A stretch of 64,000 nt of DNA from Candidatus Lloydbacteria bacterium RIFCSPHIGHO2_02_FULL_50_18 (lineage in GTDB: Bacteria; Patescibacteriota; Minisyncoccia; Phycocordibacterales; UBA6899): the NCBI GenBank assembly GCA_001821395.1, contig MHLM01000004.1, positions 1-64,000 on the forward strand. Reading direction: 5' to 3'. Both the position numbers and the translations under genes were made by a program. Below the pieces are notes generated by a model. The model was not told the origin of the DNA. It searched no databases and worked only from the letters and a program-made list of their open reading frames with translations. Positions 2,087 through 58,923 of this stretch are shown here, piece after piece; the stretch's first letter is position 1, and each line of letters starts with the position of its first letter.

Positions 2087-2121
2087 AAAAACACCCTTAC
2101 GGGCGTCTTTTTATTATTGTG
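2087..2121. promoter_or_regulatory. 14-bp perfect AT-rich inverted repeat (cacaataataaaaa / tttttattattgtg) with 7-nt spacer, upstream of the Z1 ATPase gene
   Basis: Read directly; lies in the non-coding leader of the island. Confidence 0.4.
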
Positions 2122-2313
2122 GACACCCTGTCGGCAATTTGGAACCAGCTCGAAAGCTACGTCCTGCGCTCATACGAGCTCATAAAAGGCTCTGGTATCA
2201 CGATGGCGCCCAGAGAAATGGCCGCATAGTCTCACATACCGGTAATACAACCACTACAGAAATGAAGGGGTGGCGCGTAGTAGGCCTCGCTGTTCCTTGA
2301 GTGTCAAAAGGTC

Positions 2314-2319
2314 TATAAT
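2314..2319 (+). promoter_or_regulatory. candidate -10 box TATAAT only 6 nt before the Z1 start codon (near-leaderless transcript)
   Basis: TATAAT at 2314-2319, ATG at 2326; no convincing -35 at 17-bp spacing. Confidence 0.3.
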
Positions 2320-2325
2320 TGGGGC

Positions 2326-4413: not shown

Positions 4414-4464
4414 GTTGCGTCATTGCCCCTCGAGTTTTTCCCCGATTAGTTCTATAATTCATAC

Positions 4465-5568: not shown

Positions 5569-5818
5569 ATTCAGCTCGCCTAAAAAGGTAGAATGAAGGT
5601 GTCACATCCTGTGACCACATAGCCTAAACCAGGAGCAATCCTGGCATGGCCACATAAATCCTACGCGACAGAAGCGGCCTCATAGGTCGGCTCTACTCGC
5701 GTAGGTCAGGTGTCCCGAAAGGGCCCTGGGTAATGCCCGAAAGGGTGTTATCGCCGATTCTGTGGGGCCACTTCTGTACCTACAGCTTCGGGATTATCAG
5801 AAAACCTACGCGAACAAT

Positions 5819-6325
5819 ATGAGAAATTCTCACCGGGGATTCATCCCTCTGGTGGCAATCATCCTACTCGGCCTAGTGGCTGTGGGTGGAGGGGTGGTTG
5901 CGACCATATCACTTAAGGGGCACGAAAGGGCTCCTGCTTCACCCGAGCAAATCGATTCTTTGGCCCCTGTTGCGGCACGTGTCGAGAGTTCTGCCACCAC
6001 TACGACAAGTACGAGCCCGGCGGGCACTAAGCCACCCGTTGAACAGATTGAGGTAGTGACCGAAAAGCAGGTCGTTTTAGATACAAAATCCAAGGAGATC
6101 TGCGACCAAATCGCCTCGGTTCAAATCGATACCTCCAAGCAGTCCCTTGTTGAGGACATGAGAGTGCTCTGTGAGCTGATCGATAAAGGGCGCTATCAGG
6201 AGGGAGAGGAGCTTGATACGGCAACCACACGACTACATGAGAAGTGGGAGTTGTGGCTCAAGGTCCAAACGGCCCAAGAATCAGCAGAAAGCAGGGCCCA
6301 GGACATAGAAAACGGTACCAGATAG
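5819..6325 (+). CDS. membrane-anchored hypothetical protein (single N-terminal TM, Ser/Thr-rich linker, acidic C-domain)
   Basis: Track ORF 5762..6325 starts with GTG; ATG at 5819 gives MRNSHRG + TM helix; island cargo. Confidence 0.45.
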   Translation: MRNSHRGFIPLVAIILLGLVAVGGGVVATISLKGHERAPASPEQIDSLAPVAARVESSATTTTSTSPAGTKPPVEQIEVVTEKQVVLDTKSKEICDQIASVQIDTSKQSLVEDMRVLCELIDKGRYQEGEELDTATTRLHEKWELWLKVQTAQESAESRAQDIENGTR

Positions 6326-6335
6326 CCTCACACAT

Positions 6336-6445
6336 CGAATTACAGCGAATTAAAATAGGGGTCTTGGACCGAATTAAACCGAATTAAATACGGGGGTCTG
6401 GAGCGGATCAAAGCGAATTAAATCGAGGGGTATGGAATGCGCCGG
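6336..6445. repeat. iteron-like array: five CGAATTA(AA) copies, three followed by a G-run and TCTGGA-like tail
   Basis: cgaatta at 6336, 6346, 6370, 6380, 6414, read directly; just upstream of the recombinase operon. Confidence 0.5.
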
Positions 6446-6704
6446 AAACTGAAAAAATACGAGAGATCGTTATCCACAAGGGTGGCACAGGTGTGCAACC
6501 TTGTGCGATTTGTGCAGAAGCATAAACTAAAGAGGTACCTATCTGGTTAAACCAGATTAGTCTCGGAGTAAGACCCGGGCTAAACACTGAGGCTGGGAAC
6601 CTCGCTAGGCAGGGATCATCGAGAGGCTGCCATTTCATCTCACGAACGTGGGGTGCGATGGCAGTCTCTTTGCTGTTAAGCATCACACGCCGTGCACACA
6701 CGGC

Positions 6705-6884
6705 ATGCTATCTCTCGAAGAATGTAAGAAACACATACGAAGTCTGGACTTACCTGATGATGAGGTCGAAAAAATCAGGGACCTTTTGTATGCCTTTGTG
6801 GAAAGAACGCTGGACTATGGCCTTGAAAAAGGCATGTTTGTTGTTGCACATAAGCCATGTCATCCAACCGATCAAGAAAACTAG
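6705..6884 (+). CDS. possible small acidic protein upstream of / overlapping the recombinase start (excisionase/regulator-like by position only)
   Basis: Inner ATG of track ORF 6648..6884; charged helical-looking sequence; overlaps the recombinase start by 28 nt. Confidence 0.25.
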   Translation: MLSLEECKKHIRSLDLPDDEVEKIRDLLYAFVERTLDYGLEKGMFVVAHKPCHPTDQEN

Positions 6885-8458
6885 ATTCAAGCTCAGCACT
6901 AATCTATTGCCGAGTCTCCTCGGATCGCCAGGCGAAAGAGGGTCATGGACTCGATAGTCAGGAGCATCGATGTCGCGAGTACGCGAAGTCGAAGAGTTAT
7001 GAAGTGGAAGACGTATTTACCGATACCTTCAGTGGCGGCGGTGATTTCTTGAAACGGCAAGGCATGGTCGCGTTACTACATTACATAGATAAGCACCCGC
7101 ATAGAAACTATGTTGTGGTCTTCGACGACTTAAGCCGATTTGCTCGAGATGTCGCGGCTCATATAAGGCTTCGACAAGAGTTTGATAAAAGAGACACAAA
7201 GATTGAGTGCCCAAACTTCACGTTTGAAGATACGCCAGAGGGTGAATTGGTGGAGAACATTATGGCGGCACAGAATCAGTACCACAGGAAAAGCAACAGG
7301 AGACAGGTAATTCAGAAGATGAAAGCTCGACTTGAGAAGGGGTATTGGCCTCACTATCCGCCACCGGGCTACAAGCAAGCGAACGATCCAGTACACGGTA
7401 AGCTCCTAAAACCAATAGAGCCTCGGGCAAGCATAATCAGAGAAGCCTTTGAAGGGTTTGCTTCTGATCGCTTCATGACTCAGACCGACGTCATGTACTT
7501 CCTACGAGGGACTGAATATAACAATGGCAGACCTGTTTACGTGGAAGGAGTCAGGCGTCTGCTCCGCCGGGTGGTATATGCCGGTTATGTCGAGCGTGAG
7601 GAATGGGATGTGTCGAGACGTAAGGGACAGCATGAAGCACTGATTAGTTTGGAAGTGTTCGAAAAAGTCCAAGCAAAGCTCGATGGCAAGTGTAGGGTGC
7701 GCACGCGGATAAGTGACAAACTCGACTTCGCACTGAGAGGCTCAATCCTGTGTCACGAGTGTAGGCGTCCACTAACGGGAAGCTGGAGCAGAGGGAGGAG
7801 CAAGATGTACCGATTCTACCGATGTAACACGCCGTCATGCGCGCGCTATAACAAGAGCCTCAATGGTGATTTCGTGGATGAGAGATTCAAAGTGTTACTT
7901 GAGTCTGCTGTACCGCGAGCAGAACTTCTTGAACTCACACGGGCGATTGCTCTAGACGTATGGTCAAAGAGAATTAAGACCATAGATGAGCGTCGGACAG
8001 AGCTCGAGAGGAAGCTCACTGAAACACGACGGCAGGTAGAGGTATTCTCAGACCGGATCGTCAGAGCAATAGACGAATCGATGGTTCGAGTGTACGAGGA
8101 GCAAATTGTCCGAATAAGGGAAGAGGGACTTCTCATCCAAGAACAACTGCAGAAACTCGGAGTATCAGCCTCGAGCTTTGAAACCGCACTTGAAGTGGTG
8201 ATGGGATTCCTAAAAGACCCAGTGTTCATATACGAAAATGGAGACATGAACGCAAAAAGACTAGTCCTAGGACTAGTCTTCGCGGAGAAATTGGCGTTCC
8301 ATCACAAGGATGGCTTTGAAACCGCTCAAAAGCCAATGTTAATCGGGCTATTTGAACAGATTCACACCAAGGATTCCCAAGATGTGGAGATGGCGGGGGC
8401 GAACCCGCGTCCAGCAGAGAAGAGTACAAAGATCTACGTGCGTAGGTTGTCTCATTGA
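6857..8458 (+). CDS. large serine recombinase (resolvase/invertase-type catalytic domain + recombinase and zinc-ribbon C-terminal region)
   Basis: N-terminal ALIYCRVSSDRQ catalytic serine motif; 533 aa; Cys cluster CHECRRPLTG...CNTPSC; coiled-coil C-terminus. Confidence 0.9.
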   Translation: MSSNRSRKLDSSSALIYCRVSSDRQAKEGHGLDSQEHRCREYAKSKSYEVEDVFTDTFSGGGDFLKRQGMVALLHYIDKHPHRNYVVVFDDLSRFARDVAAHIRLRQEFDKRDTKIECPNFTFEDTPEGELVENIMAAQNQYHRKSNRRQVIQKMKARLEKGYWPHYPPPGYKQANDPVHGKLLKPIEPRASIIREAFEGFASDRFMTQTDVMYFLRGTEYNNGRPVYVEGVRRLLRRVVYAGYVEREEWDVSRRKGQHEALISLEVFEKVQAKLDGKCRVRTRISDKLDFALRGSILCHECRRPLTGSWSRGRSKMYRFYRCNTPSCARYNKSLNGDFVDERFKVLLESAVPRAELLELTRAIALDVWSKRIKTIDERRTELERKLTETRRQVEVFSDRIVRAIDESMVRVYEEQIVRIREEGLLIQEQLQKLGVSASSFETALEVVMGFLKDPVFIYENGDMNAKRLVLGLVFAEKLAFHHKDGFETAQKPMLIGLFEQIHTKDSQDVEMAGANPRPAEKSTKIYVRRLSH

Positions 8459-8775
8459 TTTCATGTCGTAAGGGCTAGGCAAACAAAACCTTACGAGCAC
8501 TACTCCCTTAGTTTTCGTTATCGTATTCGGGTACTACGATTCTTATCCTGAAAATATGACACGAAGGATGGGCCTATCAGGCGTACTCCCGCTTCGCGCC
8601 GTCTACTTAAGCGTAGGCGAAAGCGAAATTGTTGGCCTTAAAGTAAGGCGTCGCAATTCCACCGGTGCTTTTCTTGGCACTTTCAAGTTGTTCGCGTGAT
8701 TTACGAGACTACGAACATGCTCGGCACGCACGATATACTACTTCTTCCACTGTCGAAACATTTCATCCCCCTAAA

Positions 8776-12518: not shown

Positions 12519-12676
12519 TACCCACCCGTAGCAGAGTTGGTAAGCCAGCTCACTACGTGAGGCCTGGCTGGCTTTTTCGAAAATGAGCCGGCCACCGCCA
12601 GCGCATTCACACAACTCGTCTTCTCCGTTACACTACGAAGGCGATCTCGAATAGAGCGGTCGTCTTTGGAAAGGCA
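12519..12676 (+). pseudogene. degenerate tRNA 5' fragment (copy of the 5' half of the downstream tRNA-Ile) with a ~111-nt structured element inserted in its D-loop
   Basis: cccacccgtagcAgagttgg ... tagagcggtcgtcttt matches the tRNA at 12860 except D-stem mismatches; no intact 3' half. Confidence 0.5.
12541..12651 (+). ncRNA. copy 1 of a conserved ~112-nt hairpin-rich element (terminator-like hairpin + TTTTT, CACC-loop hairpin, ACACAACTCGTCTTCTCCG and CGATCTCGAA blocks)
   Basis: Same element at 58634..58746 with compensatory changes in two stems (AGCCAG/CTGGCT vs AGCCAA/TTGGCT; GCCGGC..GCCAGC vs GTCGCC..GGCGAC). Confidence 0.55.
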
Positions 12677-12857
12677 GCGAGAGATAAATGAAAGTTCTAC
12701 TTTCATTTGAATCGAGTGAACCTTTCCGTTCTTTGAGAATTTTGTGCACGCATAGCTCAGTTGGTAGAGCGGTCGTCTTTAGAAGAGCAACGAGAGATAA
12801 ATGAAAGTTCTACTTTCTTTTGAATCGAGTGAACTCTTCGCATTCTTTGAAAACTTA
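12677..12857 (+). repeat. two tandem ~110-nt units, each [~77-nt spacer with gaaagt-tct-actttc hairpin] + [tRNA 5' half]
   Basis: Spacers 12677-12745 and 12781-12857 are ~85% identical; second unit contains tRNA 5' half 12746-12780. Confidence 0.6.
12746..12780 (+). other. tRNA 5' half (acceptor GCACGCA, D-arm, anticodon stem GTCGT, loop start CTTT); its matching 3' half is at 12952..12986
   Basis: Acceptor 5' GCACGCA pairs with TGCGTGC at 12979-12985; stems GTCGT/ACGAC perfect. Confidence 0.55.
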
Positions 12858-12859
12858 GT

Positions 12860-12932
12860 CCACCCGTAGCTCAGTTGGTAGAGCGGTCGTCTTATACACG
12901 ATTGGTCCCTGGTTCGAGTCCAGGCGGGTGGA
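12860..12932 (+). tRNA. tRNA-Ile (anticodon UAU; loop CTTATAC), no encoded CCA
   Basis: Hand-folded cloverleaf: acceptor CCACCCG/CGGGTGG, D-stem GCTC/GAGC, anticodon stem GTCGT/ACGAT, T-arm CCTGG-TTCGAGT-CCAGG. Confidence 0.7.
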
Positions 12933-12951
12933 CTCAGTTTTGAAAGAATTT

Positions 12952-12986
12952 ACGACTGGTCCTAGGTTCGAGTCCTAGTGCGTGCA
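12952..12986 (+). other. tRNA 3' half (anticodon-stem 3' strand ACGAC, T-arm CTAGG-TTCGAGT-CCTAG, acceptor TGCGTGC) matching the 5' half at 12746..12780
   Basis: Read directly; separated from its 5' half by ~170 nt that contain the intact tRNA-Ile. Confidence 0.55.
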
Positions 12987-13001
12987 CAAAGATTTGAAAG
13001 G

Positions 13002-13030
13002 CCGTACGATTGGTCCCCGGTTCGACTAAG
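13002..13030 (+). pseudogene. truncated tRNA 3' fragment (ACGAT TGGTC CCCGG TTCGACT then unrelated sequence)
   Basis: Anticodon-stem 3' strand and T-arm 5' strand only; T-stem 3' strand and acceptor are missing. Confidence 0.4.
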
Positions 13031-25534: not shown

Positions 25535-25957
25535 ATGAATAAAAACCTTATGAGTATGCAAACGATAGTACTGGTGGAGGACGACGAGATACTCGCTGAG
25601 GTGCTTGCGACCGAGCTCAGTGATGCCGGTTTTAAAGTTTTTCGGGCATCTGACGGAGAAGCCGGTTTAGCGTTGGCAAAAACAAAGAACCCGGACCTTG
25701 TCTTGCTTGATCTCATCCTCCCAAAGAAACATGGTTTTGAGGTGTTGGAGGAACTTAAGGGTTCTCCTGATACCCATCACATCGCTATTATCGTACTCAC
25801 ACTGCTCGGTGAAGACGACGACATAAAAAAAGGACTCAGTTTGGGTGCCGATGACTACATCGTTAAATCCAGTCATGCGGTGGCCGAAATTGTAGAAATG
25901 GTAAAAAGTTTTTTGTTAAAGAAAAATGCAACACCAATCCTTAAAAAGTCGAAATAA
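25535..25957 (+). CDS. single-domain response regulator (receiver only)
   Basis: VLVEDDE, phospho-acceptor LLDLILP, K in DYIVKS. Confidence 0.85.
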   Translation: MNKNLMSMQTIVLVEDDEILAEVLATELSDAGFKVFRASDGEAGLALAKTKNPDLVLLDLILPKKHGFEVLEELKGSPDTHHIAIIVLTLLGEDDDIKKGLSLGADDYIVKSSHAVAEIVEMVKSFLLKKNATPILKKSK

Positions 25958-25990
25958 TAATTCTCGTCATCTTCATTGTCGGATGCGATC

Positions 25991-26046
25991 GTCATCATTA
26001 CCGATGGCGTTTTCGACGATCGTGCTCTTTTTTTTGTTTTCTTTTT
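25991..26046 (+). terminator. hairpin (cgatcgtc ... gacgatcg) followed by long T-run after the response regulator gene
   Basis: Read directly. Confidence 0.4.
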
Positions 26047-26128
26047 TTGTGCATACGAGTAAGTCACCTTTTTATCCTTACTGCTCACACTCATGAACAC
26101 CATTCCCTGCTATCCCGAACCTGAAGGT

Positions 26129-29100
26129 ATGAAAAAGAAGATCAGCGCATTTTCTTTTGCGATACTTTGTGCGGTGATCCTTTTTTTTGGTGGGGCGAAC
26201 ACCGCCATGGCCGCAGCAAGAGTGGCTTCAGTCTCTGGTAATTGGAGTAGCACTGCGACATGGGGTGGATTGTCGGTGCCGACTTCTGCGGATACTGTCA
26301 CGATCAATAGTGGTATCACGGTCACGATAGATATTGCAGCAGCCGCCAGTACACTTACCTTTGCTGCAGTCACTACAAACAGTGCGGTAAACATAAGCGG
26401 GACAAACTCGCTTGCGGTAACCGGCCTAGTAAGCATGCCGAGACCATCGACTGGTCGAACAGCAACAATTGCTGTGGGTGCGGGGACATTCAATGCGGGC
26501 TCTCTCACGATGAGTGCGACGACCCTGGGGCGGAATGATATTTTGAGTATTTCGACCGGAACGGCCACGATAGCCGGAACGATCACTACCGGAACTACTG
26601 GCTGTCAACTGACTCTTACCGATGCCGGGACGCTGAATATCGGTGGCAACTTCACCAGTACTCCGACGCTCACGACATTTACCGGTTCTATGGTGAACTA
26701 CTATGGCAATGCCACGCAAACTATTCGACCGATCATCTATAGCAATCTCACACTCTCAGGTGCAGGCACAAAAAATTTTCCTGCAGCTGCAACGGTAAAT
26801 GGTAATTTGACTTTGAGTGGAACGGTAACGTCGACAACAGCCGCGGCAGAGATCATTGGCGGAAATCTTGACGTGGGTGCAGGGGCTACTTTTCGTACGG
26901 GAACAACGAACACTTGGACGCTTGGTGTGACGGGTACCACGAACGTCACAGGAACTCTGACGCTTGCAAATACCGGTACCAAAACATTCACCGGTGCGGT
27001 TACGCTGAATAGCGGTAGCACTTGGAGTGAGACCGGAATTGCTGCGGTGACCTTTAATGATGATCTGACAAACAACGCCACTACTTTTATGGCAAATACC
27101 GGAACGCATACCTTTGGTGGCATAACTCATACGTTAAGCGGTGCAACTACGATAGCGATTCCCGGAACGGCAACTTTCACAGGTCCTTATGCAAATAATG
27201 GAACGCTTACTGCCGCAACGCTCAGCGCAATTGGTGGAACTGCGGTTCTTACCAACAACGGTACCATAACTGTTTCTACTGCCTTGTCAGGAAGTGGCGG
27301 ATTCACTCAGGGAACTATGGGCGCATTGAATCACGGTGGTTCAACGATCGCTATCACCATATTTGAAGCTAGTGCCGTCGGGAATACGGTGAATTATACT
27401 GATGCAGCGCAGACGGTAAGAGCGGTAGCGTATGACAATCTGATCCTTTCCGGTTCTGCTGCAAAATCCATGGCCCCAGGCACTTCAGTTGCCGGTAATT
27501 TGAGCATTGCGCCTACTGGTTCAGCTTCGGCCAGTATTGCGGCAGGTCAAAATATCAGCGTTGACACATTGACACTTGGCGGCGCAGGGAAAAGTGACGG
27601 CACTTGGGGCTCAACCAGCTCTACTGCGACCAATCAGAACAATACCTATTTCGCTCCGACGACCGGCATCCTGACCGTCACGACTGATAGTCGAGTGCCC
27701 CAGGTAGCCCTGACTGCTACTGCCTCTCTGTCGACTGTTTCATATGGCTCGACGTCAACGCTCTCTTCAACGGGAGGATCCGGAACGGGGGCGGTATCAT
27801 TTTCAGTTGGTGCTTCGACCGGGTGTTCGATCACGGGGGGAGCAATTCTGAATGTAACGAATGTCTCTGGCACATGCGCGGTCACCGCAACAAAGGCTGG
27901 TGATGATACCTATAAGCCGGCATCATCGTCACCATTAACAGTTACCTTGACGAAAGCCACCCCAATCCTCTCCGTCACGAACTCACCCGTCACATACAAC
28001 GGTACATCGCAGTCGGCGACCGTGACCGGTTCAGTGTCCGGTACACCAAGCAATATCAAGTATGACGGTTCGGGAACCGCTCCCACGAACGCCGGCACAT
28101 ACGCCGTCACCGCGAACTTCACTCCCGCTGATACTACCAACTACTTCTCCCTCACCGACGCGTCGGCAGGGAGCTTCGTGATCACGAAGGTGACCCCGAC
28201 GCTCTCCGTCACGAACTCGCCCGTTGCCTATGACGCCGCACCTCATGCCGCAACTGTCTCGGGTTCCGTCGCGGGCTCCGCAAGTGCTATCCTCACGGGC
28301 GGTGCCGCATCACAAACGAACGCCGGTACCTATGCCGTCACCGCGAACTTCACGCCCGCCGACACCACGAACTATTTCTCTCTCACTGATGCGTCTGCAG
28401 GGGATTTCGTGATCACCGGAGTGGATCAGACGATAACCCTTGATGCTCTCTCGGATAAAATGCTTGGTGATCCCGATTTTGTCGTCTCAGCTACTTCCTC
28501 TTCAGGTCTGACTGTCTCATTCTCATCGCTTACTACGAGTGTTTGCACAGTGACTGATCCAACGGTACACCTTGTCTCTGTGGGAACGTGTACGATCCGC
28601 GCCGCACAAGGTGGGAGCGGTAACTACAATCCTGCTCCAAACGTAGATCAGTCATTTTCAGTCAATCATCCGGCGACAAAATTCGTCATTCTTCCACCCA
28701 CGGATGGTACAACGGATGCGCCAGTCACTGTTACTATTCAGGCACAGAAAGCGGATAATAATATCGATACCAGTTATCAGGACGATGTGACGCTCGGTAC
28801 CACCGGATCCGCATCGGGTGGCGGACTCGTTGATATCGAAAATGGCATCGGCACGAAGAATATTTCTGACATCATGGCAGAATCGATCACACTTTCGCTT
28901 GATGACTCGGAGCTTACGGGGCTTGATTTCTCATCAACGCAACCGCTCGTGTTCCACGCAGGCGCAACCGCTCAGTTTTCCCTCAGTCACCCTGCGACGT
29001 TGGCCGCAGGAGAGCGGGCACCGTACGTTGTTACTCGTCAAGACCAGTATGGCAACAACACTGCGAGCGCAACAAGCACCGTGTATTTCTTCAGTTCATC

Positions 29101-31747
29101 ATCCGGCGTGAATAAGAAATTTTATGATGCCGCATCCGGAGGAAGCATTGTTTCGTCGATCGTCATCTCCGGCGGGCAATCATCGGGGAATGTGTGGTAC
29201 TACGATGAACTAGGAGGAGAATGGACGATCACCGTATCCGATAATGCAGGAGGCCCCGATGGGAATGCTGGGGTCAATGATGCCATCGACTTACTCCAGG
29301 TAAACGCGGGTTTCGTGTCTAAATTCTTATTCAATGATCCTGGTGATATGATGGCAGGCACCCGACTTGCATATACCGTTACTCGTAAAGATCAGTTCGA
29401 TAATCTTGCCTCAGTCGGCATCACCCCCGCCTATCTTTACAGCGATTCTACCGGCACCAGCGCTCCTCAATTCTACGATTCCGCGATCGGGGGAAGCGTC
29501 ATCTCCATTCTTTCAATTCCGAACGGCTCTTCGACTGTATCCGTTTGGTATTCCGATCCGAACCCCGGGACTTGGACGGTTACCGCGTCCGATCACGCGA
29601 CCGCTCCGGACGGAGCGGCGGGTATCATTGATGCTACTGATGCGGTGGTCGTTGGTGCCGCCCCCATCGTTGCAACGCGATTCGTGATCAGACCATCGGT
29701 GAATGGAACAGTAGATGCACCGATTACGGTCACTGTGCGTGCGGAAGACGCAAACGGAAATGTTGATACGTCGTATCAAGAAGATGTGACGTTGAATGCA
29801 GATGGTTCTGCCTCAGGTGACGGACTAGTGAATATCGTCAACGGCGTTGGCACTATCGCGCTCGCTGATACTGTTCCGGAAGATGTGAATCTTTCGCTCA
29901 CTGACAGCGAAGCAACCGGTCTCGATTTCTCGTCAATGCGGGTAGTGACCTTTGCTCCCGGTGCCGTCGCACAATTCTTGCTTGATAATCCGGGTGATGC
30001 TGCTGCCGGTATGCGCATCGCATACAATGTCACACGTCTAGATCAGTATGGTAACTCGGTGTCATCCGGGGCAACAACGGTTCATCTCTATAGCACGTCA
30101 GACGGAGTGAATAAAAAGTTCTATGATGCGGCGATCGGAGGCAGCGCGATCACGTCGATCGTCATTCCGAACGGTTTCTCTTCCGTCGGATTCTGGCAGT
30201 ACGATGAAAAGAGCGGCAACTGGTTCGTTACGGCTTCCGATAATGCTACGGTACCCGACGGTGCGGACAATATAGATGATGCGAGCGACGCCATCACCGT
30301 GCAACCGGCAGCCCTTGCGGCATTTGTGCTTAATGAACCGGGAAATATGACCGCGGGTACGCGACTGGGCTACACGGTCACGCGCCGGGACCAATTCGAG
30401 AACCAGGTTACGAGTGGTGTGGCTCTTGCATATCTCTACTCATCTTCACCTGCGACGACAACTGCGTTCTATGCGGCAGCGACCGGAGGGTCACCAACGA
30501 CCTTTATCACCATCAATGACGGCAATGCGGTCGGTAATTTCTGGTACTACGATGAGACGGACGGCACTTGGCTTGTGACCGTCTCTGATTCGGCCGTCGC
30601 GCCTGATGGTGCCGTCGGTGTACGTGATGGGTCTGACCTGGTATCAGTGAGCGCAACGCCAATCACGGCAACTCGTTTCGTGATCCTTCCCGTATCATCG
30701 GTGCAGGTAGGCTCGCCTGCGACGGTTACCGTGGAGGCACAGGATAATGCGGGGAATATTGATACTACCTACCAGTCTGATGTGATGCTTCATGCAAGCG
30801 GATCGGCGACCGGAGACGGACTGGTGAACATCGTGAATGGCGTGGGGACAATGACCCTCAGGGATGCAGTTGCGGAAGCAGTTACATTGTCGCTTTCTGA
30901 CACGGAAGACACTCTTCTTGATGTGTCTTCGACTCGGCTGCTTACCTTTACCGCGACCCCTGTTGTTCCATCGTCAGGTGGTATCGGGAGCACTGCATCC
31001 ACCCCGGCACCGGCCCCCTTCGTTCCACGCGTTACGGGAGTGCAGATCTCGGGGGTAGCATTTCCGCAAGCATTCATCCATGTTCTTGCGACCTCGGGAG
31101 AAGGATCGGCAATGCAAGGTCAAACGACTGCTACTGCGAACGGCTCGTTCTCATTGTTGTTGAAAAATGTGAAAGTAGGTGCCGGCTCCTACGGTATCAT
31201 CGGCATTGATAAGCTTGGATTCACAACTCAGACGAGAGTGTTCAACGCGAATTATGCGAATAAAGATACATTGCTCGATCTCGGTGCGCTACTGCTTTCT
31301 CCAACACTCAATCTCGTTCATCCGACGGTGCGAAAGAGCGATGTAGTGGGATTTGTGGGGATGGCGGGACCAAGGTACGCTGTTGACGTAGAGATTGACG
31401 GAGAGTCCGCAACTGCTCGTACCGTAGCGTCTGCTGACGGCTCCTACAAGGTACTCTTCCCGACCGGCGAACTCGCGCTGGGTAGTCATACGGTTCGAGT
31501 GCGCCAGACATCACCAAGCGGTAAACAGAGTGAAAATTCACCTCAAAAGATATTCACCGTTACAAGCCTTTTCACTCCGCAGACTGATTTTAATCAAGAT
31601 GGTATAATCAATGTACAAGACTGGAGCATCTTCATCTCACGATGGATGTCTTCTATCGAGGCGACGCGTCTGCTTGATGACCTGAATAATGACGGTAAAG
31701 TGGATGTCTCGGATCTCAGCATCTTCGTTCGCACAATTAAAAGATAG
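26129..31747 (+). CDS. giant repetitive cell-surface protein (Thr/Gly/Ala-rich beta-repeat N-region, Ig-like tandem domains, C-terminal dockerin-like double calcium-binding repeat)
   Basis: Signal peptide after MKKKIS (RBS GAAGGT); internal repeats; C-terminal DFNQDGIINVQDWSIF...DLNNDGKVDVSDLSIF matches the dockerin repeat pattern. Confidence 0.85.
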   Translation: MKKKISAFSFAILCAVILFFGGANTAMAAARVASVSGNWSSTATWGGLSVPTSADTVTINSGITVTIDIAAAASTLTFAAVTTNSAVNISGTNSLAVTGLVSMPRPSTGRTATIAVGAGTFNAGSLTMSATTLGRNDILSISTGTATIAGTITTGTTGCQLTLTDAGTLNIGGNFTSTPTLTTFTGSMVNYYGNATQTIRPIIYSNLTLSGAGTKNFPAAATVNGNLTLSGTVTSTTAAAEIIGGNLDVGAGATFRTGTTNTWTLGVTGTTNVTGTLTLANTGTKTFTGAVTLNSGSTWSETGIAAVTFNDDLTNNATTFMANTGTHTFGGITHTLSGATTIAIPGTATFTGPYANNGTLTAATLSAIGGTAVLTNNGTITVSTALSGSGGFTQGTMGALNHGGSTIAITIFEASAVGNTVNYTDAAQTVRAVAYDNLILSGSAAKSMAPGTSVAGNLSIAPTGSASASIAAGQNISVDTLTLGGAGKSDGTWGSTSSTATNQNNTYFAPTTGILTVTTDSRVPQVALTATASLSTVSYGSTSTLSSTGGSGTGAVSFSVGASTGCSITGGAILNVTNVSGTCAVTATKAGDDTYKPASSSPLTVTLTKATPILSVTNSPVTYNGTSQSATVTGSVSGTPSNIKYDGSGTAPTNAGTYAVTANFTPADTTNYFSLTDASAGSFVITKVTPTLSVTNSPVAYDAAPHAATVSGSVAGSASAILTGGAASQTNAGTYAVTANFTPADTTNYFSLTDASAGDFVITGVDQTITLDALSDKMLGDPDFVVSATSSSGLTVSFSSLTTSVCTVTDPTVHLVSVGTCTIRAAQGGSGNYNPAPNVDQSFSVNHPATKFVILPPTDGTTDAPVTVTIQAQKADNNIDTSYQDDVTLGTTGSASGGGLVDIENGIGTKNISDIMAESITLSLDDSELTGLDFSSTQPLVFHAGATAQFSLSHPATLAAGERAPYVVTRQDQYGNNTASATSTVYFFSSSSGVNKKFYDAASGGSIVSSIVISGGQSSGNVWYYDELGGEWTITVSDNAGGPDGNAGVNDAIDLLQVNAGFVSKFLFNDPGDMMAGTRLAYTVTRKDQFDNLASVGITPAYLYSDSTGTSAPQFYDSAIGGSVISILSIPNGSSTVSVWYSDPNPGTWTVTASDHATAPDGAAGIIDATDAVVVGAAPIVATRFVIRPSVNGTVDAPITVTVRAEDANGNVDTSYQEDVTLNADGSASGDGLVNIVNGVGTIALADTVPEDVNLSLTDSEATGLDFSSMRVVTFAPGAVAQFLLDNPGDAAAGMRIAYNVTRLDQYGNSVSSGATTVHLYSTSDGVNKKFYDAAIGGSAITSIVIPNGFSSVGFWQYDEKSGNWFVTASDNATVPDGADNIDDASDAITVQPAALAAFVLNEPGNMTAGTRLGYTVTRRDQFENQVTSGVALAYLYSSSPATTTAFYAAATGGSPTTFITINDGNAVGNFWYYDETDGTWLVTVSDSAVAPDGAVGVRDGSDLVSVSATPITATRFVILPVSSVQVGSPATVTVEAQDNAGNIDTTYQSDVMLHASGSATGDGLVNIVNGVGTMTLRDAVAEAVTLSLSDTEDTLLDVSSTRLLTFTATPVVPSSGGIGSTASTPAPAPFVPRVTGVQISGVAFPQAFIHVLATSGEGSAMQGQTTATANGSFSLLLKNVKVGAGSYGIIGIDKLGFTTQTRVFNANYANKDTLLDLGALLLSPTLNLVHPTVRKSDVVGFVGMAGPRYAVDVEIDGESATARTVASADGSYKVLFPTGELALGSHTVRVRQTSPSGKQSENSPQKIFTVTSLFTPQTDFNQDGIINVQDWSIFISRWMSSIEATRLLDDLNNDGKVDVSDLSIFVRTIKR
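27940..28440 (+). repeat. in-frame tandem repeats of ~231 nt (77 aa) inside the giant gene
   Basis: Near-identical DNA at 28111-28220 and 28342-28440. Confidence 0.6.
28675..31000 (+). repeat. three ~1-kb (about 333-aa) tandem domain repeats inside the giant gene
   Basis: Blocks beginning ATKFVILPPTDG (28675), ATRFVIRPSVNG (29677), ATRFVILPVSSV (30670), each with a conserved VNIVNGVGT / FYDAAIGGS subdomain. Confidence 0.6.
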
Positions 31748-31758
31748 CAATCATTGTC

Positions 31759-33480
31759 ATGTCGCATCAGTACACCGGTATGTCTGTCGGGCAACATCTC
31801 CTTTTTGGTGTGATTGCCGCCATCTTCGCTTTTTCTGCCCCAGTAATGGCGTCTGCCGCATCATACGATCTTACTGTCGATAAAGACACTTTCGTCATCG
31901 GGGACACGTTCAATGTCGATGTAAAAATAGCAAGTGCTGATGTGGGTATCAATGCTGCTCAGGCGACCATCACCTACCCCAACGATATCCTCCTGGTGAC
32001 CAATCTCGACAAAGGGAATTCCGCATTCAATTTTTGGCTTCAGGGTCCTGAATACGCCAACGAAACCGGACGAGTGACATTCATTGGAGGAAGCCAGAAC
32101 AGTATCTCAGGGAAAGCTCTTCCCGTGCTCCGGATCACTTTCAAGGTGAAAGGGGCTGGACCGATCGCGATCATCTTTTCTGACGGTGCGGTTACCGCGA
32201 GCGACGGAAGCGGTACGAACGTCCTTTCCGCGATGAACGGCCTGCATCTAACAAGCATCACGAAGCAGGATGCAACGTTCATTAAACCTCCCCAGATCGA
32301 ACGCCCGGCAACGCCGTCGGTCGTGCTACCCGTGAAGCCGGTGATCACCGTCCCCCTCTACCCGGAACAGGAAAAATGGAGCAATGTATCCGCACGATTC
32401 TTTGTAAGTTGGAAATTGCCGTCCGATGTCACCGCGGTTGCAGTGGCGCTCAATAAGACCCCTCTTTCATCACCAGCGGTGTCGGAAGGACTTTTCGAAC
32501 TCAAAGAGTTCGCTCCGCTTCAGGATGGGGTCTATTATCTTCATGCGCGCTTTATGAACGACGAAGGATGGGGGAAGGCCCTCCATTATCGTATCGCTGT
32601 CGACACACTGCCCCCACCGCTTTTTAAGATCGACATTGCCGCACTGAGCGATAATCCTACTCCAACAGTGGTCACAAACGTGGAGGATGCGCTTTCGGGT
32701 ATCTCTAGCGTAGTATTTCTTGTTGATGACAAGGAAGTACTTCAAACTGCAAGTACGTCAGCAAAACTGCCCCCCGTAGGTCCAGGATCGCACGTATTGC
32801 GGGTGAAAGTCATTGACCGTGCGGGGAATAGCTCCGAGGAGAGCACCTCATTTGAGATCACACCGCTTCCGACGCCGATCATAGAATTTCTTTCCGTTTC
32901 TGCTACCCTCGAAGAACCCGTTATTGCACTTGGAAAATCCATTCCAAATGCATTCATTGATGTCAGCGTATTGAACGCTCTGCAACAGGAGATATTGAAG
33001 GATACCGTTGAAAGTGACACTTCAGGAGTCTGGAGAGTGAACCTAGGGCAATCGCTCCATTCTGGGAAATACACGCTTGCGGTAACCGCTCGGGACGTGC
33101 GTGGGGCATTAAGCTATCCCACCAAAGACGGAGCATTCAGGGTGCGACCGCAAGTGGTGCTGTCGTTCGGAGGGCTTATCGATCTTAGTTGGTTGGAGAT
33201 ATTTCTTATCACATTAGTCTTCATTATCGTTGGAGGAGGTCTTGCCGCATGGCGCTATGTTTCGGAGAAGCGGGTTCGAGAAGCGTACAAGATCGTCGTG
33301 AGCCAGGATGTTGAAAAGTTTGGCTCCATGCTCTCGTCTTCTCTGAAAGAACTTGGGGCCATACAAAGAGTTCCCGAGCCGGGTCGGTCAGCAAAGGTAG
33401 CGTCACTCGTTGCATCGATGAAAGATCGGGTCGCAAAATTGAAAAAGTATATCGGTACGGAGGTGAGTAAAATGAAGTAA
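31759..33480 (+). CDS. cohesin-like domain membrane-anchored surface protein (signal peptide, N-terminal cohesin-like beta-sandwich, Ig-like domains, C-terminal TM anchor)
   Basis: N-terminal region YDLTVDKDTFVIGDTFNVDVKIASADVGINAAQATITYPNDILLV...VLRITFKVKGAG resembles cohesin modules; C-terminal TM helix + basic tail. Confidence 0.6.
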   Translation: MSHQYTGMSVGQHLLFGVIAAIFAFSAPVMASAASYDLTVDKDTFVIGDTFNVDVKIASADVGINAAQATITYPNDILLVTNLDKGNSAFNFWLQGPEYANETGRVTFIGGSQNSISGKALPVLRITFKVKGAGPIAIIFSDGAVTASDGSGTNVLSAMNGLHLTSITKQDATFIKPPQIERPATPSVVLPVKPVITVPLYPEQEKWSNVSARFFVSWKLPSDVTAVAVALNKTPLSSPAVSEGLFELKEFAPLQDGVYYLHARFMNDEGWGKALHYRIAVDTLPPPLFKIDIAALSDNPTPTVVTNVEDALSGISSVVFLVDDKEVLQTASTSAKLPPVGPGSHVLRVKVIDRAGNSSEESTSFEITPLPTPIIEFLSVSATLEEPVIALGKSIPNAFIDVSVLNALQQEILKDTVESDTSGVWRVNLGQSLHSGKYTLAVTARDVRGALSYPTKDGAFRVRPQVVLSFGGLIDLSWLEIFLITLVFIIVGGGLAAWRYVSEKRVREAYKIVVSQDVEKFGSMLSSSLKELGAIQRVPEPGRSAKVASLVASMKDRVAKLKKYIGTEVSKMK

Positions 33481-33504
33481 GAATTATTTCTTTGTTCAAC
33501 AAAA

Positions 33505-33529
33505 ACCAGCATGACAGTGCTGGTTTTTT
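33505..33529 (+). terminator. rho-independent terminator
   Basis: accagca-tgacag-tgctggt then TTTTTT. Confidence 0.65.
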
Positions 33530-33673
33530 ATGTGCGGAGGGGGCGAGATGTTCGACGCCTACTGCGTCAGTACCCGTTTCCCATTTTCTCAACATAAGAA
33601 TGTCTCGAAAATAGGGGAGAACGGCTTCGAATCTCGCACGAAAGTCGAGCAGTCGACTTTCTCTCCTCCGCAT

Positions 33674-33707
33674 AAAAAAATCACGCTCATGCGAGCGGAT
33701 TTTTAAA
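33674..33707 (-). terminator. hairpin + T-run immediately downstream of the minus-strand type II tRNA
   Basis: Minus strand ccgctcgcatgagcg followed by ATTTTTTT. Confidence 0.45.
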
Positions 33708-33796
33708 TGCGGAGGGGGCGAGATTCGAACTCGCGGACCGTTTAACGGGTCGACAGTTTAGTAAACTGTTGATTTAAACCACTCATCCACCCCTCC
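33708..33796 (-). tRNA. type II (long variable arm) tRNA, Ser-like; anticodon loop TTACTAA gives nominal anticodon ACU (unusual); CA after the discriminator
   Basis: Hand-folded: acceptor GGAGGGG/CCCCTCC, 3-bp D-stem, anticodon stem ACAGT/ACTGT, long arm, T-arm GCGAG-TTCGAAT-CTCGC. Confidence 0.5.
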
Positions 33797-33829
33797 CTGA
33801 TTCCTGTACTGTAGCATAAAATGCAGCCA

Positions 33830-34360
33830 TGAAAGAGAGAGGGCGGGAATTGGTCACAAGTCATACCATCTCCAGTTAACTCTTTCTGCTCACAGAAGTT
33901 TCAAAGGTCAGTCCTTGGCCCTGCCTGCGCAGGCAGGTTTGAAAGGTCTCTCCTTGGAAACTGATTCGGAAGACCTTAACGAGAGATGGTATCACTAAGC
34001 GTATGCGGAGCAAGGCTCCTTATCCGTTAAGTGCACCACGGAGAGGGCGGGAATTTCTCGGCTTACAGCCGCAATACACCTTTGCGATTTATTCAGCATA
34101 AGAATGCTTCACAAATATCACCACGAGGAGTACTTCATTTTTCTAAGACGGAGTACCGTTAAGAAAAATTGGTCGCGCAAAGCTTTTCGAATCTCTTTGC
34201 GAGAGGGCGGATGCGGTCACGAGTTACTAAGCTTTTTATTTCGCTTCGCTCATAAAAATCTAAGTACTCTCGACCCCGACTCGGCTACGACCTTCGACGA
34301 GCTCAGGTCGGCTTCGCGCCTCCGTCTTTCGAATCCCGCCCTCTCGCGCAATGGCATATT
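33830..34360. repeat. array of partial copies of the tRNA-Ser 3' end, plus an 18-bp palindrome cctgcctgc|gcaggcagg at 33920-33937
   Basis: Copies at 33831-33860, 34038-34066 and 34199-34230 are direct (same orientation as the gene); 34340-34356 is inverted. Confidence 0.55.
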
Positions 34361-34381
34361 AAAAAAGACCTTTCGGTCATT

Positions 34382-34471
34382 TTTAAGCCATTGGCGGAGA
34401 GGGCGGGATTCGAACCCGCGAGGGGTTTTATCCCCTGCCACGTTAGCAGTGTGGTGCCTTCAGCCGCTCGG
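34382..34471 (-). tRNA. tRNA-Ser (anticodon GCU), CCA encoded
   Basis: Hand-folded type II cloverleaf: acceptor GGAGAGG/CCTCTCC, loop CTGCTAA, long arm, T-arm GCGGG-TTCGAAT-CCCGC. Confidence 0.8.
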
Positions 34472-34581
34472 CCACCTCTCCAAAATATTATTGCTCATGT
34501 AACTTAGCATATTGAGCGCTACTTATCAAAGTACCCCAAGAGAAAGCAGCATTTGGGAAGTTCTGGCTATTTCCCGCGAAC

Positions 34582-35271
34582 ATGCTAATTTGTGTCGAGA
34601 ACTATTTATGGGGGTTTCACGTGGATCTTTGTCATCTCGCGGTAGAAAAAAACGTGCGGGCGTTCATGAATATTATTGTGGAGACTTGCCGCAGGCTTGA
34701 CGTCGAGGTACTCCTCTGCGAGGGTGATCGTGTTGAATATGGCGGTATTTACAGCAATGGATATTTTGGCAACATAAGCCCTCTCTCTGTGCGTTACGCA
34801 GTTGCCGTTGGAAAGCCGACGTCTCTGTGGCTTCCTGTTGCGCTGCATGAATTCTGTCACTTGGAACAATGGGCTGAGGGCGCTCCCGTTTGGATCGATC
34901 AGGAGTTTTCAAAGACAATGTGTGCCTTTGATCTGGTGATGGAATGGTGTGGGGGTAAGGACCTGTCAAAAGAAGAGGTAATCCGACTTGTTCGCCTTGC
35001 GCGCGAGTTGGAGCGGGATTGTGAAGAACGCGCACTCCGGAAGATCACGCAGTTTGAGCTTCCGCTCGATCCTCTCGAGTACACACAAAAGGCAAATAGC
35101 TATTTGTTCTTTTATACCGCCATGATTGAGACGAAACAATGGTACGTCCGTGCGCCGTATGAGGTTCCCGAAGTGTGGACGTTGATGCCCACCATACTTT
35201 TGCCGGCGGGCGATTACGATACGCTTCCTGGGGAATACCTCGAGGCATTCAAGAAGCATCTCTTTGCATAG
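34582..35271 (+). CDS. hypothetical protein with HExxH-like motif (HEFCH)
   Basis: Complete ORF, start uncertain (alternative ATG 34666); no family recognised. Confidence 0.4.
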   Translation: MLICVENYLWGFHVDLCHLAVEKNVRAFMNIIVETCRRLDVEVLLCEGDRVEYGGIYSNGYFGNISPLSVRYAVAVGKPTSLWLPVALHEFCHLEQWAEGAPVWIDQEFSKTMCAFDLVMEWCGGKDLSKEEVIRLVRLARELERDCEERALRKITQFELPLDPLEYTQKANSYLFFYTAMIETKQWYVRAPYEVPEVWTLMPTILLPAGDYDTLPGEYLEAFKKHLFA

Positions 35272-56811: not shown

Positions 56812-56870
56812 TTTTCGTGATGATGTTCATAAAAGCAAGCACGCTTTCTTTTATGAACATCATCACGAAA
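56812..56870. repeat. 23-bp perfect inverted repeat (tttcgtgatgatgttcataaaag / cttttatgaacatcatcacgaaa) with 12-nt spacer
   Basis: Read directly; lies 30 nt upstream of tRNA(CAU). Confidence 0.6.
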
Positions 56871-57111: not shown

Positions 57112-57185
57112 GCGGTGGTAGCTCAATTGGTTAGAGCACCCGCCTGTCACGTGGGAGGTTGCGAGTTCGAGTCTCGTCCGCCGCG
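57112..57185 (+). tRNA. tRNA-Asp (anticodon GUC)
   Basis: Acceptor GCGGTGG/CCGCCGC (G·U), loop CTGTCAC, T-arm GCGAG-TTCGAGT-CTCGT. Confidence 0.85.
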
Positions 57186-57192
57186 CAAATAC

Positions 57193-57218
57193 AAAAAAAC
57201 TGCTTTTGCAGTTTTTTT
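57193..57218 (+). terminator. rho-independent terminator after tRNA-Asp
   Basis: aaaaaaactgc-tttt-gcagttttttt. Confidence 0.6.
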
Positions 57219-57235
57219 GTGTTTGCACGGTGGAG

Positions 57236-57262
57236 GAAGCATCTGCATGCTTCCGACGAGAC
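57236..57262. repeat. palindrome ggaagcat-ctgc-atgcttcc followed by an inverted copy of the tRNA-Asp T-arm/3' end (gacgagactcgaactcgc)
   Basis: 18-nt exact reverse complement of tRNA-Asp 57161-57178. Confidence 0.55.
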
Positions 57263-57329
57263 TCGAACTCGCCATCACCATGATGAGTACTTCCAATTTC
57301 ATACTCTCTGTAGTCGTTGAAATTTAGGT

Positions 57330-57385
57330 CGCTCCATAAAGCCTGCGATGACGATCTCGAATAAGCTTCGCTTCTCGTCCGTCCC
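57330..57385. repeat. third, fragmentary copy of the tRNA-associated element family (CTGCGATGACGATCTCGAATAAGC + TTCGCTTCTCGTCCG)
   Basis: Matches the 3' block of the elements at 12541-12651 and 58634-58746. Confidence 0.45.
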
Positions 57386-57393
57386 GTAAATAC

Positions 57394-57417
57394 AAAAAGT
57401 ACCTAAAGGTACTTTTT
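57394..57417. terminator. bidirectional terminator hairpin aaaaagtacc-taaa-ggtacttttt (downstream of minus-strand tRNA-Met)
   Basis: Read directly. Confidence 0.55.
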
Positions 57418-57424
57418 GTTCTTG

Positions 57425-58300: not shown

Positions 58301-58326
58301 AATATTTGAAGTGCCGTCGTAGCTGT
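58301..58326 (+). repeat. partial upstream duplicate of the tRNA-Thr(GGU) leader + first 13 nt
   Basis: atttgaagtgccgtcgtagct repeated at 58338-58362 where it continues into the intact tRNA. Confidence 0.55.
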
Positions 58327-58436: not shown

Positions 58437-58485
58437 TGTGCCGCCTTAGCTCAGTTGGCAAAAGAAAGTCAGACAGCTCACTCGT
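58437..58485 (+). pseudogene. partial 5' duplicate of tRNA-Thr(CGU) (first 23 nt) followed by a degenerate anticodon-arm-like hairpin
   Basis: gtgtgccgccttagctcagttgg identical to 58531-58553; then cactcg-tta-cgagtg. Confidence 0.5.
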
Positions 58486-58534
58486 TACGAGTGTTGAGGA
58501 AGATGGTGTAAAATAGTGAACAATTGAATAGTGT

Positions 58535-58620: not shown

Positions 58621-58803
58621 TTCGCTCAGTTGGTAAGCCAAGTCCGCAAAGCCAGACACTGGGTTGGCTTTTTCGTAGCAGTGTCGCCCACCGGCGACGC
58701 ACCACACAACTCGTCTTCTCCGCTACGCTGCGAAAACGATCTCGAATAGAGCATCTCACTCGTAACGAGAAGGTCCGCAGTTCGATCCTGCGAGGCGGCT
58801 CTA
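58621..58803 (+). pseudogene. partial copy of tRNA-Thr(CGU) lacking the 5' acceptor strand and ending CTAG instead of CCA, with the ~113-nt structured element inserted in the D-loop
   Basis: gctcagttgg | element | tagagcatctcactcgtaacgagaaggtccgcagttcgatcctgcgaggcggctctag. Confidence 0.55.
58634..58746 (+). ncRNA. copy 2 of the conserved ~112-nt hairpin-rich element
   Basis: Aligns with 12541..12651 over full length with stem-preserving substitutions. Confidence 0.55.
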
Positions 58804-58923
58804 GAAAAAGAACGTAGTATTTTTTTGTCCGCCTCAAGAAAATAACTGCTTGTTTTCTGGCAGGATCGAATAGCGAAGCTAAAAAGCCGCGCATATGCGC
58901 GGCTTTGTGTACTCACTCATTTC

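Follow-up and report, generated by a model that had tools for sequence, protein, structure and literature searches.

We analysed a stretch of 64,000 nucleotides (nt) from Candidatus Lloydbacteria bacterium RIFCSPHIGHO2_02_FULL_50_18 (contig MHLM01000004.1, positions 1 to 64,000), referred to here as the window, and focused on two serine transfer RNA (tRNA) genes, tRNA-Ser(GCU) and tRNA-Ser(ACU), and on the partial copies of their 3' ends that lie behind them. The tRNA genes were called with ARAGORN and with the Rfam tRNA model RF00005, whose gathering score is 29. Loci fetched from related genomes or metagenome contigs are designated by L-numbers (L004, L007, L024, etc.). The syntenic relatives of the window carry the labels Candidatus Lloydbacteria or Parcubacteria, and there are Rifle groundwater contigs identical to the window, including NCBI GCA_001818945.1.

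The last ~23 nt of tRNA-Ser(GCU), from the T loop to the CCA, are the source sequence of the copies. The 12-mer GAGAGGGCGGGA is present four times in the 64 kilobases (kb), at 33837, 34041, 34397 (inside the gene) and, inverted, at 34334; its mean number in shuffled sequence is 0.26, and four copies were reached in 0 of 100 shuffles. A weaker direct copy, GCGAGAGGGCGG, lies at 34199-34210. The direct partial copies that an earlier note on this DNA had described were thus all reproduced, with extents slightly narrower than the 34199-34230, 34038-34066 and 33831-33860 given there, the tRNA-derived cores being 34199-34211, 34039-34055 and 33837-33851. The long imperfect palindrome that an inverted copy was said to form with the gene's own 3' end is also present, with arms of 31 nt each (34328-34358 and 34384-34414) that are 87% complementary around a 25-nt spacer. 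The 3' end of tRNA-Ser(ACU) is copied too, directly at 33534-33549 and, interrupted by a hairpin, in inverted orientation at 33626-33671, and a 79-nt repeat (33535-33613 against 34039-34117) has 71% identity. Pieces of tRNA surround every tRNA locus in the window.

The direct copies are the 3' arms, and the inverted copies the 5' arms, of non-coding fold-back cassettes of about 140-190 nt. Read on the tRNA strand, a cassette consists of a terminator-like hairpin (T1), arm B (the inverted copy), a conserved, structured body and the direct copy. Arm B repeats part of the tRNA gene in inverted orientation, starting at position 57 in the middle of the T loop and running along the acceptor 3' strand into the trailer, and is often split by hp1, a conserved 22-nt hairpin (GAAAGTGCC-CTGC-GGCACTTTC); the direct copy always starts after C56 of the T loop, at the centre of TTCGAA. 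The inverted copy, which the earlier note had listed in addition to the direct ones, is a regular part of the cassette. Behind tRNA-Ser(GCU) there is a stack of three cassettes, of which two are degraded, and behind tRNA-Ser(ACU) a single intact one (hp2 and hp3 denote the hairpins of the family 1 body):

34392-34481, minus strand: tRNA-Ser(GCU), CCA encoded (ARAGORN, GCT; Rfam tRNA, 54.1 bits)
34199-34391, minus strand: cassette A (family 2), whole unit including T1
34349-34391, minus strand: T1, an A-run, short hairpin and T-run at the centre of the long palindrome (sequence; inverted repeat)
34328-34348, minus strand: arm B of cassette A, without hp1, CGCGAGAGG-GCGGG-ATTCGAA on the tRNA strand
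34212-34327, minus strand: body of cassette A, family 2, AGACGGAGG...GAGTCGGGGTCGAGA...GTGACCGCA (homology)
34199-34211, minus strand: direct copy 1 (TCCGCCCTCTCGC), closing arm of cassette A
34036-34198, minus strand: cassette B, a family 1 remnant (covariance-model match at 34054-34131, 33.6 bits, E 2.4e-6)
34186-34198, minus strand: AAAGAG-ATTCGAA of cassette B
34176-34185, minus strand: 5' strand of hp2 of cassette B, the rest of hp2 being at 34079-34118
34119-34175, minus strand: foreign mini-element within hp2, 58 nt (57 nt as mapped)
34072-34078, minus strand: TGTATTG of cassette B
34059-34071, minus strand: hp3 of cassette B, CGGC-TGTAA-GCCG
34036-34058, minus strand: AGAAATT and direct copy 2, CCCGCCCTCTCCG
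33835-33996, minus strand: remnant C, with direct copy 3 (AATTCCCGCCCTCTCTC) at 33835-33851 preceded by a long imperfect hairpin at 33859-33996
33709-33796, minus strand: tRNA-Ser(ACU), type II, G73, anticodon loop TTACTAA (ARAGORN, ACT; Rfam, 55.8 bits; homologues in L016, L018 and L055)
33673-33707, minus strand: T1 of tRNA-Ser(ACU), a bidirectional terminator-like hairpin and palindrome centre (terminator scan on both strands; inverted repeat)
33532-33671, minus strand: intact family 1 cassette of tRNA-Ser(ACU) (covariance model, 134 bits, E 2.6e-33; fold)
33663-33671, minus strand: arm B of that cassette, GCGGAGGAG, with hp1 at 33640-33661 and GCGAG-ATTCGAA at 33626-33637
33574-33625, minus strand: hp2, then GGGTACTG, hp3 at 33554-33568 and GAACAT
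33532-33547, minus strand: direct copy CTCGCCCCCTCCGCAC
33500-33529, no strand assigned: T2, a bidirectional terminator-like hairpin closing the locus, also 3' of a convergent gene of 573 amino acids (aa) (inverted repeat)

No credible genes were found in 33500-34391, and no sigma-70-like promoter was found inside the locus, where the cassette is flanked by terminator-like hairpins. In cassette A, arm B is an inverted copy of the T loop, the T-stem 3' strand and the acceptor 3' strand of the tRNA, and direct copy 1 forms a perfect inverted repeat of 12 base pairs (bp) with 34336-34347. The body has homologues at L042 7121-7217 (73%), in the unit of L055 and, by alignment, in the cassette of the transfer-messenger RNA (tmRNA) gene of the window. 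Cassette B, which has lost T1, arm B and hp1, is 78-91% identical to modules of L033, L027 and L029, and its 58-nt mini-element is 94.8% identical to L029 1886-1943. The mini-element (CACCACGAGGAGTACTTCATTTTTCTAAGACGGAGTACCGTTAAGAAAAATTGGTCG on the plus strand) is found near cassettes in three genomes, in either orientation: in the window, at L029 1886-1943 and at about 3530-3590 of L064. The segment 33991-34039 matches L024 3495-3542 at 84%.

The two families differ in their bodies. The parts of family 1 are, in order, T1, an acceptor-5'-like strand, a single A, hp1, GT, a T-stem-5'-like strand and ATTCGAA, then the body, and finally CGAA(A)T, the T-stem 3' strand and the acceptor 3' strand. 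The long hairpin hp2, GGTGTACTG and the 5-bp hairpin hp3 form the body; hp2 is variable as well as long, the sequence that follows it reads GGTGTAC(T/A)G, and the loop of hp3 is TGTAA or TGTAG. The body of family 2 reads GAAAGACGGAG...GAGTCGGGGTCGAGA...GTGACC and occurs at no fewer than five sites, namely unit A and the tmRNA gene of the window, tRNA-Ser(ACU) of L055, where the cassette has a perfect 20-nt flanking repeat, L042 and L064. In the related species L007, tRNA-Ser(GCU) differs from that of the window in its acceptor and T stems. Its 3' end recurs downstream of it, behind a terminator-like hairpin, first as an inverted copy that a hairpin interrupts and then, after 55 nt of other sequence, as a direct copy. 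The hairpin GAAAGT...ACTTTC-GT splits the inverted copy both in L007 and behind tRNA-Ser(ACU) of the window.

In a single strand the arms pair, arm B with either arm A (from G57 of the T loop to the trailer) or the direct copy, and give a hairpin shaped like a T or a Y, in whose stem the acceptor-stem and T-stem sequences of the tRNA recur. Single-sequence folds agree with the family 1 structure. In the covariance alignment, which was fitted to the covariance model itself and has to be read with that caveat, 84.8% of the cells are paired versus 58.7% in shuffles, double-sided changes occupy 315 cells versus 101 in shuffles, and the covariation score is 0.392 versus 0.07-0.10 with the partners slid. 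All five helices have two-sided changes far above the shuffled and slid controls, and hp1, the base of hp2 and hp3 covary independently of the tRNA. The paired fraction reaches 98.9% in hp1, where there are almost no G-U pairs, and 88.8% in hp3.

The cassettes are neither restricted to the window nor to serine tRNAs. A scan of 185,579 species genomes with the motif GAAAGT-N10-ACTTTCGT-N5-ATTCGAA returned 19 loci, all from Patescibacteria, where by our own arithmetic ~0.3 would be expected by chance; nearly all of them lie just 3' of a tRNA gene, on the same strand. A covariance model (R1) run on the 385 kb of fetched loci gave 35 matches at E<1e-3, and in these motif-selected loci 23 of 40 tRNA genes have a cassette that starts on the same strand between -5 and +47 nt downstream. 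The tRNAs concerned are those for Ser, Tyr, Gln, Pro, Arg, Lys, Cys, Leu, Trp and Gly, and the model also recovers cassettes behind tRNAs that had not been used in fetching loci. The cassette motif had 0 matches in 2.9 million viral contigs, and a viral origin of the cassette was rejected on this basis. There is no Rfam family for the cassette, and a permissive cmscan of the loci returned only tRNA and chance matches; group I introns, small ribozymes, rtT and tmRNA-like RNAs were rejected on these negative scans, and a hammerhead was rejected by eye, since the three-way junction of the cassette has the wrong strand order for it. A published study of group I introns (PMC13011429) is concerned with introns of the anticodon loop. 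Our literature searches returned no relevant description of such elements in Patescibacteria, and the family behind tRNA and tmRNA genes of many members of this group is apparently both widespread and undescribed.

The cassettes form arrays whose content changes between relatives. Behind tRNA-Lys of L024 there are three units with decay increasing outward, and the repeating unit consists of arm A, T1, arm B (with or without hp1), the body and the next arm A. In the window, a family 2 unit sits between tRNA-Ser(GCU) and the family 1 unit; in L033 and L007, which are syntenic with it, tRNA-Ser(GCU) is immediately followed by a family 1 cassette, and cassette A is therefore taken to be a later arrival on the tRNA-proximal side. 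The successive stacking next to the tRNA proposed in the earlier note fits such arrays. Over the 3.3 kb that end at 57060, L064 and the window share 99.5% identity; beyond this point L064 has a different tRNA-Asp allele, in which the tRNA end, the trailer and T1 are covered by a perfect direct repeat no shorter than 54 nt. Compared with the window, tRNA-Asp and its cassette have been swapped as one block. This allele (L064 3279-3758) differs in its acceptor and T stems and has a family 2 cassette of its own. Types of hp2 are common to different tRNA types across genomes, and therefore bodies would pass or recombine from one locus to another, with the arms being specified anew. As to the wider neighborhood, comparison of 25535-35271 with L007 448-6648 indicates that the whole stretch between the anchors is variable and inverted relative to the window; in L007, tRNA-Ser(GCU) adjoins a response-regulator gene in the opposite direction, and a different 5-kb gene set separates it from the homologue of a 201-aa protein.

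The earlier note had attributed the direct copies to successive integrase-mediated insertions at the tRNA 3' end, and one part of this proposal stands. L004 (99.85% identical to the window over 2.6 kb) and L005 (97.3%) both diverge from it exactly after ...CTCCGCCA, where at the CCA end of tRNA-Ser(GCU) they enter a conserved element. A junction scan of metagenome contigs yielded 24 loci with a nearly identical element, which is located behind the CCA end of numerous different tRNA-Ser genes and, in one case, of a tRNA-Asp, and which encodes a large serine recombinase and a LexA/CI-like repressor. In L043 it occupies the orthologous tRNA-Ser(GCU), with a LexA/CI-like repressor and a 527-aa recombinase whose frame runs into the tRNA. 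One viral contig of IMG/VR (55.9 kb) has a matching element end, and the far end of this prophage-like element was absent from the fetched loci. The CCA end of tRNA-Ser(GCU) is thus shown to be a real integration hot spot in sister strains, by a process separate from that of the cassettes. In L037 a prophage is joined to the outer end of the cassette, so the element and the cassette are separate entities, and the same follows from the tmRNA gene of the window, where the island lies between the gene and its cassette:

8382-8770: tmRNA gene, into whose 3' end the recombinase gene at 6857-8458 runs
2120-8381: tmRNA island of 6.3 kb, between the tmRNA 3' end and the tmRNA's own cassette
1941-2112, minus strand: family 2 cassette on the tmRNA 3' end, with T1, arm B (GTGGAGATGG-(hairpin)-GGGGGCG), body and direct copy CCCCCGCCATCTC

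This island carries the large serine recombinase, a Z1-domain protein, a C5 DNA methylase and a LOOT RNA (5621-5752), has TCCAC in common at both of its junctions, and now separates the tmRNA gene from its cassette.

What did not stand is the reading of the copies themselves as bare attachment (att) scars, left by cargo-bearing islands whose cargo was later deleted. Direct repeats of the tRNA 3' end do bound inserted DNA, strains are polymorphic exactly at the CCA end, relatives carry the recombinase-bearing prophage-like element at this very tRNA, and an island of the same layout is found at the tmRNA gene of the window. However, the DNA between the repeats is no random residue; it is a compact, conserved and covarying module common to many tRNAs and lineages, of which the copies are the arms. 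The element abuts the CCA and leaves the tRNA complete, and serine recombinases need no long identity. The search for an integrase or cargo that the earlier note had suggested was carried out between and near the copies (33500-34391, Pfam and called genes in 25-46 kb, and other large open reading frames) and found none, the only recombinase in the window being 26 kb away, at the tmRNA gene. We consider this explanation highly improbable and, for the copies themselves, largely refuted. Two related candidates were also discarded: the palindrome is not a serine recombinase attachment site, as 18-45 nt separate its halves and the right half-sites that were inferred bear no relation to the left ones, and no gene for an RNA-guided recombinase or nuclease, whose guide RNA the cassette might be, is located nearby.

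The reading that we favour, to which we give about an even chance, is that the units are fold-back cassettes of single-stranded DNA that copy their arms from the local tRNA gene and are added next to it. New cassettes would be inserted beside the tRNA gene and push the older ones outward, where these would be truncated, interrupted and decay, leaving a row of direct and inverted copies. The active form would be single-stranded DNA of the tRNA-sense strand, which is suggested by the flanking terminators, the lack of a detectable promoter, the scarcity of G-U pairs in hp1 and the frequency of truncated copies. The tRNA-specific arms would be copied locally and not imported, because they follow each tRNA together with its trailer and because of the perfect repeat in L064. 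Arm B has 0-2 mismatches to the adjacent tRNA in most loci and is often closer to it than the downstream copy is (0 vs 2 mismatches in L007, 0 vs 3 in L021 and 0 vs 3 in L024).

Several observations count against this reading. The covariation of the two arm helices is trivial, because they are derived from tRNAs; the perfection of the hairpins might stem from template-switch mutation and not from selection; and the fact that loci were fetched with the motif biases the cassette frequencies upward. No recombinase, transposase or reverse transcriptase linked to the cassettes was found with Pfam or among the called genes. Cassette content varies between relatives and strains, and no clean pair of empty and filled sites, nor an excised form, was seen among the compared genomes, so that mobility is inferred and not shown. 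Of 15 cassettes, 12 give a slightly better fold on the tRNA strand, and a U-G pair is the commonest state at the base of hp3, both of which are equally compatible with an RNA. Finally, the cassette at the orthologous tRNA-Ser(GCU) is 73-91% identical between relatives, versus 65-68% for the flanking genes, as a host-selected function, for example that of an RNA, would give.

These last points lead to the possibility that each cassette is a structured non-coding RNA gene belonging to its tRNA, expressed by read-through or from the opposite strand, whose closed stem mimics the acceptor/T minihelix of the neighboring tRNA and which would have a role in processing or regulation or serve as a decoy, with the arrays being duplications of the gene. 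Five covarying helices with conserved junction sequences and a fixed position and strand behind tRNA genes would suit such a gene; L023, L028, L030 and L033 have no terminator between the tRNA and the cassette, and there is a precedent in the E. coli tyrT operon, whose rtT repeats all contain the tRNA 3' end. Against it, ~80% of the copies are preceded by a canonical A-run, hairpin and T-run, no promoter was found, and arm B is complementary to the genomic trailer and not to the mature CCA. A single transcript could not give rise to both mature products in L030, where the arm overlaps with the tRNA's own 3' end; copies are often truncated or interrupted, and Rfam holds no relative. On balance we regard an RNA gene, the main rival of our reading, as rather unlikely, if far from negligible. 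Two specific RNA forms were rejected. A mini-tRNA or permuted tRNA of the same strand, with arm B as its 5' part, does not agree with the arms of tRNA-Asp (TTCGAGT) and tRNA-Thr (TTCGATC), which carry the reverse complement of non-palindromic T loops, so that arm B is an inverted copy; a minihelix RNA from the opposite strand works for tRNA-Asp and fails for tRNA-Ser(ACU) and L007.

Variants of the cassette are also found at the tRNA-Asp, tRNA-Thr and tmRNA genes of the window. The feature at tRNA-Asp is the following:

57187-57419, plus strand: tRNA-Asp cassette, with T1, arm B (TGCACGGTGGA-[GGAAGCATCTGCATGCTTCC]-GACGAGACTCGAACTCGC), body end CGATCTCGAAT-AAGCTTCGCTT and a terminator

As the earlier note had proposed, an inverted tRNA 3' segment lies past this gene: the 18-nt match at 57255-57272 (minus strand) is 100% identical to positions 50-67 of tRNA-Asp. 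Palindromes are located at 57174-57237 and 57392-57419, and the direct copy CTCGTCCGTCCCG was read by eye, with no BLAST match.

The other tRNA loci of the window have rearrangements of their own. A tRNA-Ile gene with anticodon TAT lies at 12860-12933; bacteria seldom have this anticodon and mostly decode AUA with the help of lysidine. Its locus (tRNA-Ile(UAU), 12521-13030) is nested, with two extra 5' halves upstream (positions 1-34, each with a repeated spacer of ~80 nt) and two extra 3' halves downstream, and the acceptor strands of 5' half 2 (GCACGCA) and 3' half 2 (TGCGTGC) match as if whole tRNAs had been inserted into older anticodon loops. An insert of ~110 nt is present in the D loop of a partial tRNA-Ile (12543-12651) and, 77% identical, in that of a partial tRNA-Thr(CGU) (58636-58746); the insert has a terminator-like hairpin at its start and CGATCTCGAAT at its end, an end that is also present before the direct copy of tRNA-Asp, at 57352-57362. 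The tRNA-Thr(CGU) region at 58624-58801 comprises a copy of positions 10-21, the insert and a 55-nt perfect copy of positions 20-74, within which 2 of the 9 mismatches of strain L063 fall. Short 5' fragments with their upstream flanks stand before both tRNA-Thr genes (58313-58324; 58440-58491), and a tRNA-Thr inverted copy split by a hairpin is located at about 58830-58875. A 58-nt palindrome (56813-56870, 93% complementary) lies just 5' of tRNA-Met.

Nested and partial duplications of this kind, which end in D and anticodon loops, bear on a further explanation, that the units are functionless, immobile by-products that template switching produces at the hairpins of strongly transcribed tRNA genes, namely local duplications and palindrome extensions kept perfect by the same process. 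Repeat boundaries do coincide with the tips of hairpins, since they lie at the T-loop centre, at the T1 apex (L016) and slightly beyond the hp1 apex (L030), and the repeat of L064 is local and perfect. This explanation does not account for the fact that hp1, the junctions and the body recur with the same sequences behind tRNAs that are unrelated and come from different Patescibacteria classes, and we judge it improbable.

With respect to the second gene of the locus, the type II tRNA with the nominal anticodon ACU that the earlier note had read at 33708-33796 was called by both ARAGORN and Rfam, with a score well over the gathering threshold. It coexists with tRNA-Ser(GCU), and its G73 and long variable arm would fit charging with serine. 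The note had left open whether it was a decaying paralogue or an unusual decoder; the former is contradicted by its conservation in four genomes (window, L016, L018 and L055) with an invariant TTACTAA and with compensatory changes in the acceptor, anticodon, T and variable stems, including A-T to G-C in the anticodon stem of L055, and the latter alternative stands. Judging from these alignments, tRNA-Ser(ACU) is a conserved gene maintained by selection and not a decaying copy. Codon use in the window is standard (AGT, 115; AGC, 128; AGA, 71; AGG, 58). Both AGA and AGG are thus used, and an inosine at position 34 would lead to misreading of AGA, so that the simplest inference is a predicted unmodified A34 that reads AGU. 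An A34 in a split codon box is unusual and raises a testable decoding question in these organisms.

Taken more broadly, we put forward, tentatively and as something short of probable, that Patescibacteria carry a previously undescribed class of elements tied to tRNA and tmRNA genes, namely fold-back cassettes with arms templated from the neighboring 3' end around a conserved, structured core, which may be target-copying mobile DNA or tRNA-specific companion molecules (for example, decoys or spare templates for 3' ends repeatedly hit by integrating elements). If this is true, a large radiation of very small genomes gives the space behind a large share of the tRNA genes covered here (23 of 40, in loci selected with the motif) to a conserved structured element that rewrites its own ends for each tRNA, which would be either a new route for selfish DNA into essential genes without harm or a new class of tRNA-linked functional molecules. 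The repeats of the cassettes also break metagenome assemblies at tRNA loci, and they can be misread as pseudo-tRNAs or att scars.

We compared the cassettes with known systems. Arrays of att sites at tRNA genes, formed by integrase accretion or by cis-mobilizable elements, share with them the direct repeats of the tRNA 3' end, the stacking, the intact tRNA and the strain polymorphism, whereas the cassettes are only 140-190 nt long, non-coding and conserved in structure, include an inverted copy of the site and have no associated integrase. The rtT/tyrT repeats of E. coli are likewise units 3' of a tRNA gene that each contain a tRNA 3' end; they have no sequence or model match to the cassettes, which are found behind many tRNAs, usually after a terminator, and have an inverted arm and conserved hairpins. 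The attP(+) of CTX phage and the attC sites of integrons resemble the cassettes in that paired inverted copies of the target mimic a duplex target, structure is more conserved than sequence, and arrays are formed, but the target of the cassettes is the end of a tRNA gene instead of dif or attI, and their arms are tRNA-specific. A long stem closed by two small hairpins, with alternation of sense and antisense, is also seen in the T-shaped hairpins of parvoviruses (the inverted terminal repeat of adeno-associated virus) and their rolling-hairpin concatemers; the cassettes are chromosomal and have no Rep-like protein, so the likeness is one of shape only. Finally, miniature inverted-repeat transposable elements (MITEs) and the REP/BIME, Correia and RPE repeats are, like the cassettes, short, non-coding, hairpin-forming and multicopy, and often lie near terminators; the terminal inverted repeats of the cassettes differ from those of all these miniature repeats in that they are not fixed, but correspond to the 3' end of whichever tRNA lies upstream.

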